A DNA stretch of 64,000 nt. Source: an uncultured bacterium (GTDB lineage: Bacteria > Armatimonadota > UBA5829). The notes under the pieces were generated by a model that was not told where the DNA came from, searched no databases, and saw only the letters and a program-made list of their open reading frames with translations. This document shows positions 17,751 through 48,973 of this stretch, piece by piece. The translations under genes and the position numbers were made by a program. The stretch lies in assembly GCA_963823885.1 (NCBI GenBank), contig CAWGNL010000060.1, positions 576 through 64,575 of the forward strand, written 5' to 3'. Each line of letters begins with the position of its first letter. Position 1 is the first letter of the stretch.

Positions 17751-17822
17751 TCGGCACCTCCACAGAAAAGAGCGGAAAGCTGAAAATGGAAAGCCCAAAG
17801 CCCGGAACCTCCGCCCAGCACC

Positions 17823-18294
17823 AGCCGCAACCAAGAAGGCCATCGCCGGAAAATCAATACGGCCTTTCCATAATTCGGAAGGTCGGTGGTTTCTTCTTAC
17901 GTATCTTACAACTGAAATCCGAGGTCACATATCAAAGTTCAGTACAGCTTGTATAGGATTTCAGTTGTAAGGTACTATCGCTTTTCCCCGGACTTCGCTG
18001 GGGAAAAGTGGCCACCTTACGGTGGCAGTTGACCAAGGCAGGCGGTCGGGTTTTTCGCTTTTCGGTTGTTAAGGGATGATTTGGAGGGGGCGGGATTCCA
18101 CCCCCGTCCCTTGAACAACACCTGAGTCGGCTCGGGAGGACTCCCCAGCGTTGCCCTACCCTCCGCCCAGGCAAAGCAAGTATAGCTCATCGGCCATCCC
18201 TTAACAACCATAAAGCGGAAAACCCAAAGGCGGTGCGCCGTCGAATCCGCCTTAGCGACAACAAATTGTTTCTAGGAGGGCGATAAGCGCCTAA
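17823..18294 (+). repeat. LR element copy 1 (about 470-bp structured non-coding repeat; left 15 nt missing)
   Basis: The L module has a 16-bp-arm hairpin CTTACAACTGAAATCC-N35-GGATTTCAGTTGTAAG. The R module has several hairpins and an approximately 29-bp long-range helix. By eye it is near-identical to the copies at 29463, 46587 and 47989. Confidence 0.9.
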
Positions 18295-18299
18295 CGCGG

Positions 18300-19278
18300 C
18301 TAAACCAACACCACGGGCTGGCCCGCACTGATGGACCTGAGCGCGGCTTCCGCTGATACGCACCGCCTCCAGAGCGTCTCTCGCCGTGATCTCGGCTTGC
18401 TTACCCTGTTCCAAACAGTCGATGAAATGTTCCAATTCCAGGTAATACGGGTCCTGGCCGCTGGGGGTCTCCGATATCACGAGGCCAGCGCGATCGGCAT
18501 CCATAGACTTCATCTCGATATTAAGCGGCGCACTCTCTTTGCTGGAATAGCTCAGCACCCCGTTGGTTCCGGCTATCTCCACGCACGTCTCGAAACCGCT
18601 GGGCCTTGCCCAGCTTCCCTCCACGTGAGCTATTGCCCCGCTTTGAAACCTGAGCGTGACCAGCGCGTAATCCGCTGACGGAACCCCCGATTCGACCGCC
18701 CGCGCAAAGACTCTGGTCACTCTTCCCAGGCTCCATCGCAGCCAGTCGAAGTCGTGGACCAACAAGTCCAGCACGACGCCGCCGCTGCGCTTGAAGTCCG
18801 CAAACCACCCCGCCGGCTGGCCCGAGCGGCGGCTGGTGCGCGCGACCATGGTTCTCCCACCGCTCCGCTGGCCACAAGGTCATGAAGCCTTCTGAACTCG
18901 GGACACCACCTCAAGACGTGCGCCACAAAAAGCTGTACCCCGGCCTCCTCGCACACACGCACGGCCTCCTGAGCTTGGCCAACCGTGCGAGCCATGGGCT
19001 TTTCCACGCACACGTGCTTGCCCGCGGCAGCGGCGGCATTTACGGAGTCGATATGGTTCGGGGTGGGCGTGCAGATATCGAGCATATCGACCTCGGAGTA
19101 TTTCAAGAGACTCCGCCAGGCTCGAAAACGGCTGAGCCCCGTACCGGGCGGCAAGCTCCTCAGTAGTCTCCATTATCGAATCACACACCGCAACAAGCTC
19201 GGCTTTCGGCATCCGAGCATAGGCCTCGCAATGGACTTTCCCAATCCCGCCAAGGCCAACGACAGCAACTTTCTGCAT
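18300..19278 (-). CDS. Gfo/Idh/MocA family oxidoreductase, second paralog (3 or more frameshifts)
   Basis: MQKVAVVGLGGIGKVH, HVCVEKPMA, and the C-domain ...DYALVTLRFQSGAIAHVEGSW. The pieces are 18880..19284, 18717..19154 and 18187..18849. The true tail ...AEAALRSISAGQPVVLV ends at TAG 18300-18302 after a shift near 18355. Confidence 0.75.
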
Positions 19279-19303
19279 CAGCACCCCCAGGTTAGAAATT
19301 AGA

Positions 19304-20412
19304 AATTAGAATCCGGACCCCTAACCCGCACAGGCCCCTGTTCGGGCGGATTTGCAATCCGGCCCGTAATGAGCAACCCGGGCATCTCTGATGCCCTACG
19401 GTTCGGCCCGGCAAATACGCACCGCTTCCCGCCACATACCCACAAGTCATGTCATTCCGAACGAACGTGAGGAATCTCCACCTATCGGTTGAATCTCACC
19501 TGCCGGAGCATACATTCCTGCGCAACGTTGAGATTCCTCACATTCGTTCCTAAGAAACTCCCCAGTTTCGGGAACAAGATTCCCGAAACACCGGGGGTGA
19601 AGAAACTCCCCAATTAGAATCCGGACCCCTAACCCGCACAGGCCCCTGTTCCGGCGGATTTGCAATCCGGCCCGTAATGAGCAACCCGGGCATCTCTGAT
19701 GCCCTACGGTTCGGCCCGGCAAATACGTACCGCTTCCCGCCACATACCCCACAAGTCATGTCATTCCGAACGAACGTGAGGAATCTCCACCTATCGGTTG
19801 AATCTCACCTGCCGGAGCATACATTCCTGCGCAACGTTGAGATTCCTCACATTCGTTCCTAAGAAACTCCCCAGTTTCGGGAACAAGATTCCCGAAACAC
19901 CGGGGGTGAAGAAACTCCCCAATTAGAATCCGGACCCCTAACCCGCACAGGCCCCTGTTCGGGCGGATTTGCAATCCGGCCCGTAATGAGCAGCCCGGGC
20001 ATCTCTGATGCCCTACGGTTCGGCCCGGCAAATACGCACCGCTTCCCGCCACATACCCCACAAGTCATGTCATTCCGAACGAACGTGAGGAATCTCCACC
20101 TATCGGTTGAATCTCGCCTGCCGGAGCATACATTCCTGCGCAACGTTGAGATTCCTCACATTCGTTCCTAAGAAACTCCCCAGTTTCGGGAACAAGATTC
20201 CCGAAACACCGGGGGTGAGTTTCTTTCCAATGTGACTGCGACAGTGTCGCTGTCAATTGCTCGGAATGACAGCCACGCGTTGGGCACTCATGATGCCTGA
20301 GCACTTGCCCAGCATAACGTTGAGATTCCTCACATTCGTTCCTAAGAAACTCCCCAGTTTCGGGAACAAGATTCCCGAAACACCGGGGGTGAGTTTCTTT
20401 CCAATGTCAACC
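19304..20412. repeat. Composite tandem repeat: three units of about 309 bp (19304, 19612, 19921) plus related degenerate copies up to about 20412
   Basis: Each unit holds small hairpins (cggatttgcaatccg, gggcatctctgatgccc), a long hairpin gaacgaacgtgaggaatctc-N52-gagattcctcacattcgttc, and a REP-A hairpin. The identical 101-aa pseudo-ORFs at 19447 and 19756 confirm the 309-bp period. Confidence 0.95.
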
Positions 20413-22038: not shown

Positions 22039-22208
22039 CCTAAAGCGGCGTAGCCGCAACCAAAAAACCATCGCCGGAAAATCAATACCGCCTTTCCGCA
22101 ATTCGGAAGGTCGGTGGTTTCTTCTTACGTATCTTACAACTGAAATCCGAGGTCACATATGAAAGTTCAGGTACAACTTGTATAGGATTTCAGTTGTAAG
22201 ATGCTACG
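22039..22208 (+). repeat. LR element, L module only (copy 2)
   Basis: cctaaagcggcgtagccgcaacc ... cttacaactgaaatcc-N36-ggatttcagttgtaagatgcta. It ends 6 nt before the aconitase ORF. Confidence 0.9.
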
Positions 22209-22213
22209 CCTAA

Positions 22214-24158
22214 ATGGATCGAACAATGACACTCAACCTTGCAAAAAAGATTATCCGCGAGCACCTCGTGGAAGGTGAAATGATTCCCGGTCGGGAGATT
22301 GCGATACGCATCGACCAGACCCTCACCCAGGATGCCACGGGAACAATGGCCTACCTGCAGTTCGAGGCGCTGGGAGTGCCGTCGGTGAAGACAAAACTCT
22401 CCGTGAGTTACGTAGACCATAACACCCTCCAGTCCGGCTTCGAGAACGCGGACGATCACGCGTACCTGCAGAGCGCCGCCGCCAAATATGGCGTCTACTT
22501 CTCCCTGCCGGGAAACGGCATCTGTCACCAGGTCCAACTGGAGCGCTTCGATGTGCCCGGCGACACCCTCCTTGGATCCGACAGCCATACTCCTACCGCT
22601 GGAGGCTTGGGGATGCTCGCAATAGGAGCGGGCGGATTGGACGTGGCCTCGGCGATGGCCGGACAGCCCTTCTACCTGCCGATGCCCAAAGTCTGCCTTG
22701 TCAGGCTGACCGGCAGCTTAAGGCCCTGGGTATCCGCTAAGGATGTGATCCTCGAAGTCCTGCGCATTCTGGGGGTAAAGGGTGGGGTCGGCAAGATTAT
22801 CGAGTACGGCGGGGAGGGAATCCGGAGCCTCTCGGCCACGGATCGCGCCACCATAACGAACATGGGGCCGAGCCGGCGCCACGACATCCATCTTCCCAAG
22901 CGACGATATCACGCGAGCGTTCCTCGCTTCTCAAAACCGGGAGGGCGATTGGAAGCAGGTATTGCCCGATCCGCAATGCGATTATGATGAAGTTATCGAG
23001 GTAAACTTAGACACACTTGAACCTCTAATCGCTATGCCCCACTCGCCGGACAATGTGGTAAAGGTCAGCGAAATCGAGGGGACGAAAGTCGATCAGGTGG
23101 CAATCGGCAGTTGCACCAACTCGTCCCTGCGGGACCTGATGGTCGTAGCCGGCGCTCTCAAAGGCAGGACCGTGCACCCATCGGTGAGCCTCGTGATATC
23201 GCCTGGGTCCAGGCAGGTGTTCGAGATGATCGCCAGGAACGGCGCGCTTGCGGAGTTGATATCGGCAGGGGCCAGATTGCTCGAATCCGCCTGCGGGCCG
23301 TGCATCGGAATGGGACAATCTCCCAAGACCAATGCGGTCTCCATACGCACGTTTCAACCGCAATTTCGAGGGTCGAAGCGGCACCGCGAGCGCTCAGGTT
23401 TACCTTGCCGGGCCGGAAGTCGCGGTGGCAGCCGCCATATACGGCGCGATTACCGATCCGCGCAAGCTGGGCGAGCCGCCTGTATTTCGAATCGCCGCAA
23501 AGCTACCTCGCCGATGACCGAATGGTGATACGGCCTTCGGATGAGCCGCGGTCGGTGGAAATAGTCCGCGGACCCAACATCAAGCCGCTGCCCACGAATA
23601 CCCCTCTGCCCGATACGATCTCAGGGCGGGTTCTGCTGAAGGTCCGCGACAACATTACAACGGACCACATAATGCCGGCGGGCGCCAAGGTGCTGCCGCT
23701 GAGGTCGAACATTCCGGCGATATCGGAGTTCGTCTTCACGGCGGTCGATCCTGAGTTCCCCAGGCGCGCCAGGAAATACCCGGGCGGAGTCATCCTGGCA
23801 GGCGAAAACTACGGCCAGGGTTCCTCGCGCGAGCATGCGGCGCTTGCTCCGATGTATCTGGGGATCAAGGCGGTAATCGCGAAGTCCTTCGCTCGGATTC
23901 ATCGCCAGAACCTGATCAACTTCGGCATCGTGCCCCTCAAGCTTGTCGATCCATCCGACTACGACAGGATCAGCCAGTCTCGACGACGTCGAAATACTGG
24001 ACATTGCGAGCGACCTCATAGACGGCTCGTCGATACTCGTCCTGTTGGACCACAATATCACGATGGGCTTTGAAGTCAGCCACGATCTCTCCCAGCGCGA
24101 GCGCGAAGTCATTCTGGCCGGCGGAGCTTTGAATTACATAAAGAGCAAGGCAAGCTAA
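22214..24158 (+). CDS. Aconitase-family hydratase, single-chain catalytic plus swivel domains (3 or more frameshifts)
   Basis: [29 protein letters not shown] and CGPCIGMGQ (Fe-S ligand motifs), plus swivel [17 protein letters not shown]. The pieces are 22214..22987, 22962..23528, 23111..24073 and 23943..24158. Confidence 0.8.
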
Positions 24159-25493: not shown

Positions 25494-26141
25494 ATGAGAG
25501 ATGCCCCGAGCGACAATCGCATCAGCCCCGCCGACGACGAGCTCAGGCCGGAGTTTCGCTACGTGATCGAGATGGTCAAGCCGGGCAGCCGGGTACCGGA
25601 CCTCGGCTGCGGCGAGGGACATCTCCTGAAGGCCGCGCAGCACGAGAAGCGCGCGCGCGTCCAGGGGATAGAGAACTCGGACACGGCAATTCAGGAGTGC
25701 GTCGCCAAGGGTTTGTTCGTCTTTCACGGCGACCTCAACGAGGGTTTGGCCGACTTCAACGATCAGAGCATGGACTATGTGAATCCTGACCAATACCATC
25801 CAGGTGCTGCACAGGCCGGATTTTTTGATTAGAGAAGCCGCGCGCGTGGGCAGGCACTGCATTATATCCATCCCCAACTTCGCCCATTGGCGGACCCGGT
25901 TCCAGCTTATGTTCCGGGGGGTGATGCCCAGGACGAAGGTACCTGCCGTTCGAGTGGTATGACACCCCCAACATCCACCTCACCACCATCCAGGACTTCC
26001 GGCGTTTCTGCCGCGAGCACGATCTGATGTTCGAGGAAACTGATCTCGTGCTCCGCCCCAACGGCTGCGCGCTGGTCCCCCACCCTCGCCAATTTCTTCG
26101 CGAATTACGGGATATTCCTGGTGACCAGGGTTAAAGGTTAA
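25494..26141 (+). CDS. metW: Methionine biosynthesis protein MetW (SAM-methyltransferase fold; frameshifted)
   Basis: GSRVPDLGCGEGHLL. It continues in other frames as LQVLHRPDFLIREAARVGRHCIISIPNFAHWRTRFQLMFRG ... LANFFANYGIFLVTRVKG and ends at TAA 26139-26141. Confidence 0.75.
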
Positions 26142-26175
26142 AGGTTGGAGAACCTCTCCAGGCCTTTAACCCCGT

Positions 26176-26352
26176 TAGCCCGCATTATTCACGAATTGAT
26201 AGGCCAGTCTTTTGGCTTGGGTACCCACGCGCTCCCTCTCCTGGATGGAGAGGGCTGGGGTGAGGGGGAAACGCCGTAATTGGGCACAAGCTCATCGACC
26301 GCGGCGTTCCACCCTCACCCCCAACCCCTCTCCCGTGAGGGCGAGGGGAGTT
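26176..26352 (+). repeat. Family-G palindromic element (truncated copy)
   Basis: gcccgcattattcacgaatt ... ccctctcctggatggagagggctggggtgaggggg ... ccaccctcacccccaacccctctcccgtgagggcgagggg. It is the reverse complement of 39889-40105. Confidence 0.85.
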
Positions 26353-26441
26353 CTGCCGCGGTGTTGTTTATAAAAGCACGACGTCGAAATCGAGCGCAAG
26401 GTGTTCCGTCTCCGAGATGCTGATCTTTTTTCGGACTTTCC

Positions 26442-29079: not shown

Positions 29080-29294
29080 CTTTGGATATCTCCTTTCACG
29101 GTCGAAAGTCATACGTCGCTACAGATGCGATTCCTCTGAAGATAGTTGTCGGTCGTCAGTCCGGACACCTCGCGCTCGGCGCGTCGCAGCCGGACCCATG
29201 TCAATTGTCAATTATCAATTTCTTGATGGTCGGGCGTTTCCGAACGCCCGACCCAGTTCCCCGGGTTTGCAACCCGCGAGCACGCGTTCCCATT

Positions 29295-29361
29295 GCCGGT
29301 GTATCGGGAATCTTGTTCCCGATACGCACTTAGTTTCGGGAACAAGATTCCCGAAACACCC
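29295..29361 (+). repeat. REPIN-A' (inverted pair GTATCGGGAATCTTGTTCCCGATAC + GTTTCGGGAACAAGATTCCCGAAAC)
   Basis: Direct reading. The same 67-bp unit occurs at 31176-31242, 51299-51366 and other sites. Confidence 0.9.
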
Positions 29362-29462
29362 GTTAACTAAGCACTAGTTGTCAACAATGCGGGACGGTCG
29401 TCATCCGGGTGACCGATCCCCTCCCAATCCGCTGACCCTACAAACCCTACAAACCCTATCAA

Positions 29463-29938
29463 CCCTAAGGCGGCATAGCCGCAACCAAGAAGACCATCGC
29501 CGGAAAATCAATACGGCCTTTCCGTAATTCGGAAGGTCGGTGGTAGTATCTTACAACTGAAATCCGGGGTGACGTATCGGAGTTCGGTACAGCTTCTATC
29601 GGATTTCAGTTGTGAGATACTACGCTTTTCCCCAGACTTCGCTGGGGAAAAGTGGCCACCTTACGGTGGCAGTTGACCAAGGCAGGCGGTCGGGTTTTTC
29701 GCTTTTCGGTTGTTAAGGGATGATTTGGAGGGGGCGGAGATTTCCACCCCCATCCCTTGAACAACACCTGAGTCGGCTCGGGAGAGCTCCCCAGCGTTGC
29801 CCTACCCTCCGCCCAGGCAAAGCAAGTATAGCTCATCCGCCATCCCTTAACAACCATAAAGCGGAAAACCCAAAGGCGGTGCGCCGTCGAATCCGCCTTA
29901 GCGACAACAAATTGTTTCTAGGGAGGCGCTAAGCGCCT
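29463..29938 (+). repeat. LR element copy 3 (full length)
   Basis: L plus R modules. The right end ...ggaggcgctaagcgcCTA overlaps the TAG stop (29937-29939) of padR. Confidence 0.9.
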
Positions 29939-30335
29939 ATTCAACGATTACCGTTCGCGTTACTTCCAACAACTCCCCTATGGCATCGCGATAGGTGGAT
30001 AGCGTTTCCATCCAGCGAACAAGGCACGCACGCCCCGCCATAGTGAGGCTGTATAATCGTTTGGCGGGACCCGTTTCGGACGTATCCCACGTTGATGTAA
30101 CGAGCGCGCGGTCTTCCATCTGGCGCAAGAAGCGATACACCCCTGTCGCGTCCGGCTTTCGTCCACGAAAAATCGGCATCTCCGCCAAACGCTGCACGAG
30201 CGCATAACCATGAGCATCCTCACGTGCCAGCACTGCCAAGATGGCGGGCTGCACCAGTTTATCCAGGTTGCGTCCGGCACAGGGACAGTCACGGTATTTC
30301 TGGTCGGGTAACGGGGCGCCAGGCTGTGTTGTCAT
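29937..30335 (-). CDS. PadR-family transcriptional regulator
   Basis: 132 aa with a winged-helix PadR pattern (AILAVLAREDAHGYALVQRL ... GPAKRLYSLT). Confidence 0.85.
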   Translation of the reverse strand: MTTQPGAPLPDQKYRDCPCAGRNLDKLVQPAILAVLAREDAHGYALVQRLAEMPIFRGRKPDATGVYRFLRQMEDRALVTSTWDTSETGPAKRLYSLTMAGRACLVRWMETLSTYRDAIGELLEVTRTVIVE

Positions 30336-31125: not shown

Positions 31126-31521
31126 TATCTTACAACTGAAATCCGAGGTGACGTATCAAAATTCAGGTACAGCTTGCCGGTGTATCGGGAATCTTGTTCC
31201 CGATACGCACTTAGTTTCGGGAACAAGATTCCCGAAACACCCGTTAACTAAGCACTAGTTGTCAACAATGCGGGACGGTCGTCATCCGGGTGACCGATCC
31301 CCTCCCAATCCGCTGACCCTACAAACCCTACAAACCCTACAAACCCTATCAACCCTAAGGCGGCATAGCCGCAACCAAGAAGACCATCGCCGGAAAATCA
31401 ATACGGCCTTTCCGCGATTCGGAAGGTCGGTGGTTTCTTCTTACGTATCTTACAACTGAAATCCGAGGTGACATGTCAAAGTTCAGTACAGCTTGTATAG
31501 GATTTCAGTTGTAAGATACTA
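31126..31521 (+). repeat. Nested repeat: half of an L hairpin (31126-31175), then REPIN-A' (31176-31242), a 110-bp spacer with ccctacaaa x3, and a complete L module (31353-31521)
   Basis: The left arm plus loop 5' part (tatcttacaactgaaatccgaggtgac.t.tcaaa.ttcag.tacagctt) occurs twice, at 31126 and 31446. The segment 31176-31500 parallels 29295-29600. Confidence 0.85.
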
Positions 31522-31527
31522 TCGACC

Positions 31528-33510
31528 CTATCTCAAAGCCTCGCCTTTTTCGTGTCGTGCTTGGTCTCGGGCGGGGGCTGGTAGAGGGTTTCGCCTGGCC
31601 GTACCCTTGGTCTTGACCTTCGAGGTCTCCGGAGGCGATGCGTTGAGGGCCATTCCGAGACCGAACGCGAGGTACCCCGCGCAGCTCGCATAAGCCGGAC
31701 CGTCGACCACGATTCCCGTTTCCGCGTCCACGCTCTCGCAGGCAATTCCGTTGTCCATCGGCGCTCGCCTGAGGAATTCCATCGCCTCATCGATCCGGCC
31801 GCACATCAGGTCGTTTATCACGCTCACGACCGATGGCCCGGCGCCCTCGCGGACCGATGCCTGCGCAAACGGATGATTGCCTTCGTACAACGGGTTGTGC
31901 TCCGAGTGAATCCATTTCACCGTATTGACATACGCAGGGTCGTCACCCGTGCAAAAGCCGAGAAATGTGAGCAGACTCGAGGCTGCCCGCGGGGTCGTCT
32001 CCCAACTCGAAGTTGCCATTCAGATCGATCTCCCGAGCGAACATCTTGCCGAAAGGCCCCGGCACGATGAAGTTGCCCAGAATCGCCGACCGCACCTGGC
32101 TTGCCAGCGTAGATGCCTCGTCGGACCGATCCACATCGCGAATCCTCTCGTACAGCGATTTGATGTCGAGAAGTGCCCGCCAGACCAGCACATTGGAGAA
32201 GCATACGTATGGCAGCGCCGAAAGCTCGTCCAACGGCCGCAGCAACGTCTCGAACAGCGCCAATTCCGGGTGCCTCTGGGTGGCGAGTATTTGCTGAACC
32301 GTGTTCACACCCGTCTGCACCCGGCGGTCGAAAAGGATCGAATCATCACCGGTAAGCTGGACATAAGTGTTGATTGCGCGTATCGGGGCGCTTATCTGGT
32401 CCAGGGCAATACCCGGCTCCAGGACAACGCCGTCGATAAATCGCGCGGCCACGCCGACATTGAGCAACTGTTCGGTAAAGGCGTACATAAGGAGTTTGCG
32501 CGCTTGTTCCCAGCTTATCTGGAGCACAGCGGGAAGAGTCCACCGCATCGCATCGCGGTCCCGATACGCGGCGCACAACCGGTTCCGCGAGCTTCGCGCG
32601 CATGTGACTACGAGCTCTTCCGTATCCAGGGTGATGGCCTGAGAAAAGAAGTAGTTGTAGAATGAGTTCGTATTCATCAACTGCTTGGCGAAGGAATCGT
32701 CGCAATCGATGGTGTGCTTGTCCAGCCACACTTCGAGGTGATCGAGCAGGCGCTCCCACCCGTGAAGACTCAGTTCGTTCGCGGAAGCTTCGGCGGAAAC
32801 CTCCTCCAGGCCGATGCCGAAGTACACCGGCAGTGCCTTCTTCTCCCCCGGCGATAAGACGTAATCATCCGCCAGTTCGTAGCAAACCGGCGAATCAGCC
32901 GGCGCAAGTATGCCCTCTTGCGACCGCCCGGTGATCTCTTTGCCGCTGTCGGCATCCCAAACCCTCGTGGGCACTCGGGCTTGGGTCGCCATAGCAGTGG
33001 CGAAAACAGGAACGATGTTTCCCCGAAGCTCCATTATGGGCGAAGCGTCCCGCCTGGACCCGATGTTGGCGTACTTCACACCCGACATCGATCTGGACAG
33101 GCACGCCGTGTGCGTGCTTGACTCCCAGCAGCCCTTCCACCCGGCCCTGGTCTTGATCTCCGCCCCGGATATGTTTTCGATCTCCAGCACGCAGACGAAA
33201 CCCCGGCGATCCAGCGGGGCAAATATCGTGACCCTCGCGCTCACTTTGGAAGAGCGCGCCCAGATACGCGGTATCCAGTAGCGGTCCAGCTCGCCCGCCG
33301 CTCCCCCGCCCCAAAGATGTCCTCACCCTCCGCCAGGACAACAGGCCGCAGGAGCGGCAGACGATCTGAACCGTTGATCTCGATGCAGGCCCGGTAAGCC
33401 TTGTGCATGAACCCTATTGTCCTTATTCCGGCGGACGGAATCGAGATATCGGGTATGGATACAAACTCGTTACCGGTGCTTAGCCGCGTTATGTTAGATC
33501 GCTCGATCAT
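31528..33510 (-). CDS. Glycoside-hydrolase-like (alpha/alpha)6-barrel protein, distantly GH125/DUF1237-like (2 or more frameshifts)
   Basis: Pieces are 33241..33510 (MIERSN...), 31943..33244 and 31528..32019. The segment [45 protein letters not shown] resembles the EVDGxGN...DDANxPSLL...LGY...NTR...NPYY pattern of GH125. This family call is tentative. Confidence 0.45.
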
Positions 33511-39395: not shown

Positions 39396-39710
39396 CTATC
39401 TCTTTCTAAGCCAGACGATGCCTCCTAAACCGCGGAGCAGGCCGACAACGGATGCGGGCTCGGGGACTGCCTGGACCGATATATAGTCAACGTCGAGAGA
39501 CGTCCAACTGAATCCACCGGGGACCGTGACTGAGTTGCCGATAGAAATTACCCGTGGGCCCTGGCGGTCGCAACGGTGCTCTGGAAAACCCCGTCCAAAT
39601 ACCGCGTTGAGTGAACTGAAGTCATCGTAAAACGCCAGCACAGCCGAACTACAGGCAGCCAGGGCGATGACGAACAAGCACGACACACAAGCTCGTACAA
39701 CCGCGTTCAT
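39396..39710 (-). CDS. Small PEP-CTERM sorting-domain protein
   Basis: 104 aa with a signal peptide and C-terminal VPEPASVVGLLRGLGGIVWLRKR. RBS ggagg lies upstream of the ATG at 39710. Confidence 0.7.
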   Translation of the reverse strand: MNAVVRACVSCLFVIALAACSSAVLAFYDDFSSLNAVFGRGFPEHRCDRQGPRVISIGNSVTVPGGFSWTSLDVDYISVQAVPEPASVVGLLRGLGGIVWLRKR

Positions 39711-39720
39711 GTTTGTCCTC

Positions 39721-39888
39721 CCTAAAGCGGCGTAGCCGCAACCAAGAAGGCCATCGCCGGAAAATCAATACGGCATTTCCGTAATTCGGAAGGTCGGTGG
39801 TTTCTTCTTACGTATCTTACAACTGAAATCCGAGGTGACATATCAAAGTTCGGTACAGCTTGTATAGGATTTCAGTTGTAAGATACTA
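39721..39888 (+). repeat. LR element, L module only (copy 7)
   Basis: It starts 10 nt from the start codon of the small PEP-CTERM gene and abuts its RBS. Confidence 0.9.
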
Positions 39889-46586: not shown

Positions 46587-47036
46587 CCCAAGGCGGCGCA
46601 GCCGCAACCAAGAAGGCCATCGCCGGAAAATCAATACGGCCTTTCCGTAATTCGGAAGGTCGGTGATTTCTTCTGGCGTATCTTACAACTGAAATCCGAG
46701 GTGACATGTCAAAGTTCAGTACAGCTTGTATAGGATTTCAGTTGTGAGATACTACGCTTTTCCCCAGACTTCGCTGGGGAAAAGTGGCCACCTTACGGTG
46801 GCAGTTGACCAAGGCAGGCGGTCGGGTTTTTCGCTTTTCGGTTGTTAAGGGATTTGAACAACACCTGAGTCGGCTCGGGAGAGCTCCCCAGCGTTGCCCT
46901 ACCCTCCGCCCAGGCAAAGCAAGTATAGCTCATCGGCCATCCCTTAACAACCATAAAGCGGAAAACCCAAAGGCGGTGCGCCGTCGAATCCGCCTTAGCG
47001 ACAACAAATTGTTTATAGGAGGGCGCTAAGGGGCTA
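46587..47036 (+). repeat. LR element copy 5 (full, with an approximately 35-bp internal deletion of one hairpin)
   Basis: It reads ggttgttaagggatttgaacaac where other copies carry the gggatgatttggagggggcgg..ccacccccatccc hairpin. The right end overlaps the TAG stop of gene 47034..47825. Confidence 0.9.
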
Positions 47037-47825
47037 ATTCCCCCCGCCTGCTCCGCCAAAGCCACGCCCACCGCCGCGACCTCCAAAGGCAGGAATCAGA
47101 CCCTGACTGCGCAATGCCTGCATTGTAGCACTCATCGTTTGCTGATACTGAGGGTCCTGGAACAAGCTGCGCTGAGCGTTGAATTGGTCGAGCACCATCT
47201 GCTGGCGGTCGGAGGGGTCCATGTCCATGACGTATTTCGCCTCGGACTGCAGCGCGCTGACGCGCTGCTCGGAGGTCATCTTCGACAGCAACTGCATTCG
47301 CTCGGTCTCGAGCGCAGTCAGCTTGGACGCGGCGTTCTTGCCATCATCGGCTTTCCGCTTGGAAATCAGGTACACCAGCTTCAGTCCGAGCTTGTCCGGG
47401 TCCAGGGTTGGAGCAGTCGATTCCTGCTCCACGAACACCTTCTGCTTGCCTGATGAATCGCACACCACGATCGGGCCGGAGATAGCCGCAACCGCGGCGG
47501 CGCGGGCCTTGATCTGATCGGCGCTCAGCGGTTTGTCCTTGTCCGGCACGGGTAGATACAGCTTCTGCCAGATAAGATCATTCTGCTTGGTGAGCGTATC
47601 CAGAAGCTTGTCGAGTTCCATCGACTCGAAGTGCCCGGTCAGGTTCTTCTTCAAGTCCGCATCGCATATGATCTGCACGCCGGCCTGCTTTCCGATATCC
47701 GCCATGGCCTCATCGAAGGGAGTCGCATTCGCATCCAAATTGACTTTGGGAGCATCGGCCGCGACAACCCCGCAAGCAAGACATACAAAGAGGATGACAA
47801 CGCCAATGATAGTTCCAATCTTCAT
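47034..47825 (-). CDS. Secreted hypothetical protein with a Gly/Arg-rich C-terminus
   Basis: Signal peptide MKIGTIIGVVILFVCLACGVVAA (ATG 47825), a coiled-coil-like middle, and the tail GGRGGGRGFGGAGGGN. Confidence 0.5.
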   Translation of the reverse strand: MKIGTIIGVVILFVCLACGVVAADAPKVNLDANATPFDEAMADIGKQAGVQIICDADLKKNLTGHFESMELDKLLDTLTKQNDLIWQKLYLPVPDKDKPLSADQIKARAAAVAAISGPIVVCDSSGKQKVFVEQESTAPTLDPDKLGLKLVYLISKRKADDGKNAASKLTALETERMQLLSKMTSEQRVSALQSEAKYVMDMDPSDRQQMVLDQFNAQRSLFQDPQYQQTMSATMQALRSQGLIPAFGGRGGGRGFGGAGGGN

Positions 47826-47988
47826 TTCCGTTTCGCCTTTTTCCTTTCCCCCATAGGGTATACGCCAAATCAGCCACAATTACCCGTTGACTCTTTAGAC
47901 GCCGCACCCGCATACCTGGTTACATTACTGGCCGATAGGAGCTAGGGTCAGACGCCCCCTTCCCTTCCCCATATTCTAACTCCTATCT

Positions 47989-48474
47989 CCTAAAGCGGCG
48001 CAGCCGCAACCAACAAGGCCATCGCCGGAAAATCAATACGGCCTTTCCATAATTCGGAAGGTCGGTGGTTTCTTCTGGCGTATCTTACAACTGGAATCCG
48101 AGGTCACATATCAAAGTTCAGGTACAACTTGTATAGGATTTCAGTTGTAAGCGCCTACGCTTTTCCCCGGACTTCGCTGGGGAAAAGTGGCCACCTTACG
48201 GTGGCAGTTGACCAAGGCAGGCGGTCGGGTTTTTCGCTTTTCGGTTGTTAAGGGATGATTTGGAGGGGGCGGAGATTTCCACCCCCATCCCTTGAACAAC
48301 ACCTGAGTCGGCTCGGGAGAGCTCCCCAGCGTTGCCCTACCCTCCGCCCACGCAAAGCAAGTATAGCTCATCCGCCATCCCTTAACACCATAAAGCGGAA
48401 AACCCGAAGGCGATGCGCCGTCGAATCCGCCTTAGCGACAACAAATTGTTTCTAGGAGGGCGCTAAGCGCCTAA
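47989..48474 (+). repeat. LR element copy 6 (full length)
   Basis: The right end ...ggagggcgctaagcgcCTAa contains the TAG stop (48471-48473) of cdd. Confidence 0.9.
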
Positions 48475-48881
48475 CTCCCATCCCTTAGCTCGAATCGCAT
48501 CGGCAAGTAATCGTCCAGTGATAATGTGTCGTAGGCTCCGTCCGCCGCGGCGGCCACTATCACGGTAGGGCCATCCTTAGAGGCGAACTCCGAGAGCACC
48601 TGCAGGCAGGCCCCGCACGGCCTCGCGATTTCGTCTTCCCCGGCCACCACAACCAGCGCGCGGATTTGCGTCTCGCCCTCGAAAACGGCTCTAAGTATCG
48701 CGACGCGCTCCGCGCACACTGATAGAGAGTAGGAGGCATTTTCCACGTTGCAGCCGAAATACACTTTGCCGGACCCGCCCATCGCCGCGGCCCCAACCTT
48801 GAACTTCGAATATGGCGCGTAGGCCGTCTCCCTGGCATTCATCGCGCCCGAGAGCATTTCAAGCAGAGCTGTTTCTTCCAT
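48471..48881 (-). CDS. cdd: Cytidine deaminase
   Basis: Zinc motifs CAERVAI and PCGACLQ. The start MEETALLEML at ATG 48881 gives a tetrameric-type size of about 136 aa. Confidence 0.85.
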   Translation of the reverse strand: MEETALLEMLSGAMNARETAYAPYSKFKVGAAAMGGSGKVYFGCNVENASYSLSVCAERVAILRAVFEGETQIRALVVVAGEDEIARPCGACLQVLSEFASKDGPTVIVAAAADGAYDTLSLDDYLPMRFELRDGS

Positions 48882-48973
48882 GTATAGCTCCGGGAAAGAA
48901 AAAGAGGAAAAGACCAAGCTAGATCCTTTCCTCTTCCTCTCTATTCTTGGCACAAGTGGGGTTCTCGGTTCAT

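Follow-up and report, generated by a model that had tools for sequence, protein, structure and literature searches.

The repeats that lie directly behind TAG stop codons in this genome owe that position, in all likelihood, to the ordinary target-site choice of a jumping element, and are not devices for ending genes. What had been described as a single "LR element" very probably consists of two independent, gene-less and non-autonomous mobile repeats stacked head to tail, referred to here as module A (R in the original prediction; ca. 320 nt) and module B (L; ca. 163 nt). Both are non-autonomous derivatives of insertion sequences (ISs) of a known kind, with a specific target, and sequence comparisons make it highly likely that their sources are two members of an IS family that is widespread and unannotated. 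In the mechanism that we propose, A and B would insert in a single orientation beside a short asymmetric TAG-containing site. Insertions inside genes would be lost by selection, and a TAG stop codon would be one of the few in-gene TAGs at which insertion leaves the protein intact. Selection combined with the tolerated TAG stops would place roughly a tenth of the copies precisely on stop codons, and a copy in that position is necessarily co-oriented with the gene. The pre-existing TAG would stay as the stop, and the gene would gain a hairpin-rich 3′ UTR as a side effect. Each inserted copy recreates a terminal TAG, so that copies pile up as A-B, B-B and nested composites. The apparent rule that the elements sit at 3′ ends would then result from the oriented TAG-containing site, from counter-selection of insertions elsewhere in genes and from a favourable sample in the window.

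The window, a stretch of 64,000 nucleotides, belongs to a MAG of 5.05 Mb (69% complete, 57.7% G+C) and carries the following copies and parts of copies:

17822-18294, minus strand: A+B copy 1, truncated at the 3′ end of B
29464-29939, minus strand: A+B copy 2, whose first TAG, at 29937-29939, doubles as the stop codon of the PadR-family gene 29937..30335 (PadR domain)
46587-47037, minus strand: A+B copy 3, whose first TAG, at 47034-47036, doubles as the stop codon of gene 47034..47879
47990-48474, minus strand: A+B copy 4, made up of module B (47990..48154) and module A (48155..48474)
48155..48474, minus strand: module A of copy 4, which starts with T-TAG followed by GCGCTTAGCGCC and ends with GGGGAAAAGCG-TAG
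47990..48154, minus strand: module B of copy 4, which ends with GCGGCTGCGCCGCTT-TAG, then G, and is joined to A via a common TAG
48440-48474, minus strand: the first 35 nt of module A of copy 4, the stretch originally singled out, with the 5′ hairpin and TAG in three frames
48471..48473, minus strand: TAG that is the stop of the cytidine deaminase gene cdd (48471..48953) and also positions 2-4 of module A
22039-22209, minus strand: solo B, preceded by TTAG-GCG-TAG (22210-22218)
31354..31521, minus strand: solo B (L copy at 31354-31515), 9 nt after the TAG stop of ORF 31528..32019
39721..39888, minus strand: solo B (L copy at 39721-39882), with a terminal TTTAG that is 11 nt away from the downstream ATG of gene 39396..39710

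As can be seen, all seven copies share one orientation, as had been claimed, and the TAG indeed coincides with a gene stop in three of the four full copies. The full copies are 87% identical by column, with conservation starting exactly at the TAG; the A of copy 3 lacks a nested 35-nt hairpin module. For copy 1, the original prediction had placed a gene stop at 18300-18302. No ORF of at least 30 aa ends there; the sole long ORF, 18187..18849, has a GFO/IDH/MocA C-terminal domain and continues into A for 34 codons, since copy 1 has TAT in place of the second in-frame TAG. The further claim that the R end always faces a gene stop held for the three full copies but failed for two solo B copies: the 5′ TTAG (22210-22213) of 22039-22209 adjoins the ATG (22214) of a plus-strand aconitase-family gene, and the 5′ side of 39721..39888 adjoins a sequence that recurs beside other copies and is not a gene end. 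The solo B at 31354..31521 has a flanking TAG in frame with the stop of ORF 31528..32019, and its 3′ flank is (GGTTTGTAG) x4. The location of an L module beside the RBS of gene 39396..39710 was borne out.

Several minor features of these loci were recorded. The GFO/IDH/MocA oxidoreductase gene beside copy 1 (window 18187-19284) occupies two or more reading frames, 18880..19284 encoding the N-terminal domain and 18187..18849 the C-terminal one, so that it must be a pseudogene or else reflect an assembly error. The B end TTTAG-GGAGG (window 39711-39722) contributes to, or directly adjoins, the GGAGG RBS of gene 39396..39710. The sequence TTAG-GCG-TAG at 22210-22218 resembles a module A cut down to its first or last 3 nt. 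TAG-GCG-TAG was considered as an excision footprint and rejected, as it occurs once beside a window copy and has no general support; most of the 58 genome-wide occurrences listed lie in one unrelated recurring sequence, as do most other genomic copies of TAGGCGTAG.

A genome-wide BLAST search with one LR copy as the query returned 475 HSPs. In total, the genome contains 142 A starts and 178 full-length B copies, ca. 90-98% identical, and a long ORF is absent from both modules. Besides many full A-B composites, there are B-B tandems and nested forms, and 42 A copies end at the A/B junction. Since A copies end at this junction and the two modules are found in varied combinations, it follows that A and B are separate elements that often occur together. 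In element orientation, A reads N-TAG, GCGCTTAGCGCC ... GGGGAAAAGCG-TAG, and B reads N-TAG, TATCTTACAACTG ... GCGGCTGCGCCGCTT-TAG-G.

The small hairpin that had been reported straight after the stop is present: GGCGC-TTA-GCGCC lies directly 3′ of the stop or junction TAG of A, and the first 23 nt of A contain TAG in all three frames. Subterminal hairpins were found in both modules. When the ends of A were compared by eye, only a short CGCTT match was seen as an inverted repeat, and no terminal inverted repeat was evident at the ends of B inspected in the same way. The whole element folds strongly (z = -6.4 versus shuffles). A promoter-like TTGTTA-17-TATACT sequence is located in the nested inner module of A and points in the same direction as the element (46922..46950, minus strand). 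At the gathering threshold, the only matches to Rfam were two tRNAs. A sub-threshold Rfam match to ctRNA_pGA1 (window 48159-48239, plus strand; 23.9 bits versus a gathering score of 45) covers two hairpins plus a U tract at the would-be left end of the parent IS and lies on the same strand as the transposase of that IS.

Without exception, the copies follow (T)TAG in a single orientation and have TAG at their own end. The tetranucleotide preceding A was TTAG in 86 cases, ATAG in 20, GTAG in 14, CTAG in 11 and CTAA in 1, while B was preceded by TTAG in 109 cases and CTAA was not among the eight commonest types. The dominance of TTAG and the near absence of CTAA in element orientation indicate that insertion is oriented. 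Flank logos revealed a T at position -1 in 61-74% of upstream flanks and little else; downstream, RNN-CTT follows the terminal TAG of A-only copies and G (96%) follows that of B. From these flanks, the predicted target of B is TTAGG and that of A is T-TAG-N3-CTT. The latter is matched by TTAG-TAT-CTTAC, with which B itself starts; this explains the frequent A-B composites and also a 14-copy composite in which A lies inside a reversed B at TTAG-TAT-CTTAC. Inserted copies have TAG or TTAG on both sides, and a TTAG on both sides could be either a target duplication or a cleavage site borne by the element.

How often a copy falls on a stop codon was determined with genes called by a home-made codon-bias caller, which is crude (4321 genes, 69% coding; padR, for example, was missed). 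A called gene terminates at the junction TAG in 18 of 131 A copies and in 11 of 120 solo B copies, and an in-frame ORF of at least 100 codons ends at the junction TAG in 25 A and 17 solo B copies. The suggestion of very precise target selection thus stands as far as the short oriented (T)TAG motif is concerned, but not for stop codons or terminators as such, since 81-91% of the copies are not at stops. As a null, we took unoccupied motif sites in tolerated DNA and the share of them that are stop codons:

motif TAG: 4.75% at stop codons
motif TTAGG: 3.5% at stop codons
motif TAGNNNCTT: 6.7% at stop codons
extended motif TTAGNNNCTT: 9.1% at stop codons

For A, 18/131 differs from the 4.75% null with p = 5e-5 and from the 9.1% null of TTAGNNNCTT with p = 0.05. 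For both modules, the observed 9-14% versus a motif availability of 3.5-9.1% amounts to a 1.5-2.6-fold excess (p from 0.05 to 0.004 with the motif-specific nulls). The excess is modest. It could stem from genes that the caller missed or from selection against promoter insertions; some extra preference for gene ends, or some selection, is a possible further cause.

The original prediction had the element supply the TAG. We compared the C-termini of orthologues in 20-22 genomes of the same family. The cdd protein ends ...RFELRDGS-TAG here and ...RFELKE-TAG, ...RFML+EKK, ...PFTLN+R-TAG and similarly in relatives. The protein of gene 47034, which has a Gly/Arg-rich tail, ends ...GGAGGGN-TAG, its relatives ending ...GEGGN-TAA, ...GRRGN-TAG and ...RGGN+RGAQ-TAG. 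Both proteins are thus neither truncated nor extended relative to orthologues, several of which also use TAG. A related IS in the complete Armatimonadota genome G181 is informative at the nucleotide level: one 1661-bp copy interrupts a PAS-domain histidine kinase gene (G181:C1:919300-923000; L075 954-2614). When the flanks are joined and a single CTAA (TTAG on the complementary strand) is retained, a 677-aa ORF is restored; with none retained, the frame is broken. Since the ORF is restored only with one TTAG, one TTAG was there before insertion and two after it. The TAG therefore very probably predates the insertion, which the original prediction itself had named as speaking against its reading. 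The comparison of orthologous loci that it had proposed gave agreement of C-termini; an exact empty site was found for none of the window loci in metagenomes or by exact cdd protein look-ups, the nearest relatives having at most 65% protein identity.

These results bear directly on the idea that the element brings its own TAG, inserts in the last codons and replaces the native stop, its three-frame TAG being a portable translation stop. We consider this improbable. It would accord with the TAGs in the first 23 nt of A, with the ORF that enters copy 1, and with two called genes that end inside A, at TAG positions 10 and 21, respectively. Genome-wide, however, 18 called genes end at position 2, and it follows from 18 versus 1 and 1 that the junction TAG matters and not a portable stop block. 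The places at which the cdd and 47034 proteins end, and the single pre-existing TTAG required for ORF restoration in G181, speak against it as well, as does the frequent T before the TAG in the flanks, which indicates a target preference.

The reading of A and B as IS derivatives rests on matches between their ends and those of larger elements. The ends of A (q1-47 and q267-320) match IS ends in a groundwater Armatimonadota MAG, G025, in which A-type ends are found 60-160 nt inside contig ends, as expected of an unassembled multi-copy IS, with an ORF tail on the opposite strand. This ORF tail leads to a 141-aa Anaerolineales fragment and from there to a family of ca. 553-aa proteins (40% identity over 129 residues, E = 2e-31). 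The parent of B is the 1661-bp IS of G181, both ends of which match as the reverse complement of B's ends. It is present there in five 100% identical copies and is, for that reason, probably active. Mycobacterial members of the family have the same end architecture as the A/B family: the left end consists, in this order, of AAG-N5-CTA, a hairpin whose loop is GACTTCGC and GTGGCC..GGCAGT, and the right end of CAACAAATTGTCG-N19-CTAG. No full-length parent IS was found in the 69%-complete genome of the window or in metagenome scans, and the literature yielded no direct precedent for a TTAG-targeting IS or for MITEs at TAG stops.

Both parent ISs encode one protein of 506-553 aa, a putative transposase, in which His141, Tyr142, His173, Glu245, Tyr321 and Tyr478 are invariant. 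Two queries retrieved at least 6956 and at least 7998 homologues at E <= 1e-5 from several phyla; the homologue matches listed, most of them from contigs of 1.6-3 kb, bear the name "hypothetical protein". Pfam searches with queries of 511, 549 and 460 aa gave no match, be it to Y1_Tnp, DDE, DEDD or Transposase_20, and there was none for the IS protein in NCBIfam (searched with the 141-aa C-terminal fragment only), PHROGs or PDB sequences. The structure predicted from a mixed alignment (pLDDT 87, pTM 0.77), for which an earlier AF2 model from a shallow alignment (pLDDT 49) was set aside, shows a TBP-like double beta-saddle and a MarR-like winged helix. Foldseek found no match in the PDB at E <= 1e-3. 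The best partial matches were to the TBP saddle (probability 0.98, target TM 0.53) and, for the C-terminus, to MarR/ArsR winged helices, and the top 50 contained no DDE/RNase H-like, HUH, DEDD, serine or tyrosine recombinase fold. It is conceivable, though rather doubtful, that the modelled protein is a new kind of transposase which would carry out oriented insertion at an asymmetric TAG site by a chemistry unlike that of the DDE, HUH, DEDD, serine and tyrosine recombinases, and whose cut-down copies would be ready-made "stop plus hairpin" cassettes at gene ends.

The identity of the parents also bears on another explanation, that A and B are REP/REPIN-like elements or IS200/IS605-derived PATEs moved in trans by the genome's Y1 (HUH) transposases, through single-strand peel-and-paste beside TTAG. 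The genome does contain such enzymes, with 58 Y1_Tnp matches that correspond to an IS200-like element (64 copies) and a RAYT flanked by inverted REPs. A and B share with IS200/IS605 elements and PATEs the subterminal hairpins, the absence of clear inverted repeats and the insertion in a single orientation 3′ of a fixed tetra- or pentanucleotide. As with REP/REPIN-RAYT systems, NTAG is followed by a GC-rich hairpin, which recalls the GTAG of REPs, and copies occur just behind stop codons and in massive intergenic clusters. Nevertheless, the ends of A and B are common to ISs that encode a 506-553 aa protein and not a Y1 transposase; this protein matches neither Y1_Tnp nor TnpB in sequence or fold, and no TnpB Zn-ribbon was found in the genome of the window. 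Neither the hairpins of the Y1 element nor the REPs of the RAYT on contig C73, which is flanked by GGTCCGGGGTTTCCGAACCCCGGACC, resemble the hairpins in A and B; such differences make the genome's Y1 transposases and RAYT unlikely mobilisers of A and B. Further, A and B form long composites with IS parents, unlike REPs, and carry the target tetranucleotide on both sides, unlike IS200/IS605. A link of orientation to GC skew, as in IS200/IS605-style replication strand bias, was rejected (agreement in 157/312 copies). The involvement of Y1 enzymes is thus no more probable than an element-borne stop.

Orientation was also compared with genes throughout the genome, as the original prediction had proposed, and proved random, be it relative to genes, to GC skew or to neighbouring copies. 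The start of A is co-oriented with the upstream gene in 75 cases and opposed in 63 (n = 138, p = 0.35), orientation agrees with the local gene-strand bias for 166/312 copies, and neighbouring copies have the same orientation 81 times and different orientations 88 times. A copy is carried by 6.8% of tandem, 8.6% of convergent and 8.6% of divergent gaps; in tandem intergenic regions, 118 copies are co-oriented and 95 anti-oriented (p = 0.13). Under random orientation, seven of seven window copies would lie on one strand with a probability of 0.016. The run is local to the window, and three of the seven copies are necessarily co-oriented because they sit on stops. A terminator scan of the R module gave nothing on the gene strand: the aaggcgg-N13-ccgcctt stem that had been called terminator-like has a 13-nt loop and the tail TGGGTTTTCC, and no GC stem with a U tract was called.

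Least probable of all, and very unlikely, is accordingly the proposal that A and B form a selected transcription-termination or mRNA 3′-end module, placed or retained behind genes in the sense orientation; the co-directionality of the seven window copies with mostly minus-strand genes, the hairpin directly after the stop, the strong fold and the fact that REP elements in E. coli affect mRNA 3′ ends would all suit it, but the genome-wide counts of 75 versus 63 and 118 versus 95, the equal occupancy of divergent and convergent gaps, the outcome of the terminator scan, and a window copy that adjoins a gene start on the opposite strand do not.

The reading as target-specific IS derivatives agrees best with what is known of MITEs and other non-autonomous IS derivatives, such as the Correia elements of Neisseria and the IS630-derived MITEs at TA. 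Like these, A and B are gene-less, short and multicopy (ca. 160-320 nt, 140-180 copies, 90-98% identity), and both of their termini are common to full-length ISs. They also share with MITEs a short specific target, an intergenic location, which would often entail co-transcription with neighbours, and the nested and tandem composites. In contrast to MITEs, A and B have no clear TIRs, are strictly oriented on an asymmetric target, and have a parent transposase that belongs to no annotated family. A comparison with IS110/IS1111, meant only as to how the system works, brings out oriented insertion at a specific short site, the absence of clear TIRs and a short core at both junctions as common traits; the parent of A and B differs in having no DEDD or Transposase_20 Pfam match, and the target is far shorter and less specific. 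Members of the IS5 group target YTAR with a 4-bp duplication, and A and B resemble them in the TAG/CTAA within the target and in the 4-bp repeat that flanks the element. IS5 elements have a DDE_Tnp_1 transposase and TIRs and, to our knowledge, are not known to orient relative to the target, whereas in the A/B family neither DDE_Tnp_1, nor clear TIRs, nor unoriented insertion was seen.

For annotation of this genome and its relatives, it follows that a TAG stop followed by GCGCTTAGCGCC or TATCTTACAACTG should be taken as an insertion junction and not as a regulatory motif, and that ORFs running into A or B repeats should be treated cautiously. The case is a clean example of how a short oriented target motif alone yields an apparent association with stop codons, and the same TAG-containing target explains the head-to-tail stacking of such elements. 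The abundant unannotated IS family, with its putative transposase that matches no known fold, is a more interesting lead than the stop association itself.

Other repeats were encountered in the same genome. The IS200-like element is ca. 680 bp long, has 64 full copies (G000 contigs C25, C34, C45, C87, C96 and others; e.g., C25:12892-13570) and encodes a Y1 (HUH) transposase of 165-180 aa. It bears the hairpin GTTTCGGGAAC..TTCCCGAAAC at both ends, and its copies often lie inside one another. In the window, this hairpin builds large tandem arrays, with copies at 1-2536, 20144-20397 and 29294-29373. The RAYT gene (180 aa) is present in two copies, G000:C73:21990-22690 and 25700-26400, each with inverted REPs GGTCCGGGGTTTCCGAACCCCGGACC, a sequence of which the genome has about 90-100 copies. 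The genome is strongly enriched in short tandem repeats with TAG-ending units, which flank B copies (window 31280-31350 and many other B flanks). Among them are GGTTTGTAG x4, heptamers (AGTTAGG/AGTTAGA) and octamers (GGGGCTAG), and slippage or serial insertion and excision are candidate origins. Finally, a third repeat family, CTAG followed by TG(C/T)(C/T)TA(G/C)TTGCATAA, has 284 copies, 268 of them preceded by CTAG, and it, too, can sit immediately on a TAG stop codon, as it does in 13 instances, for example.
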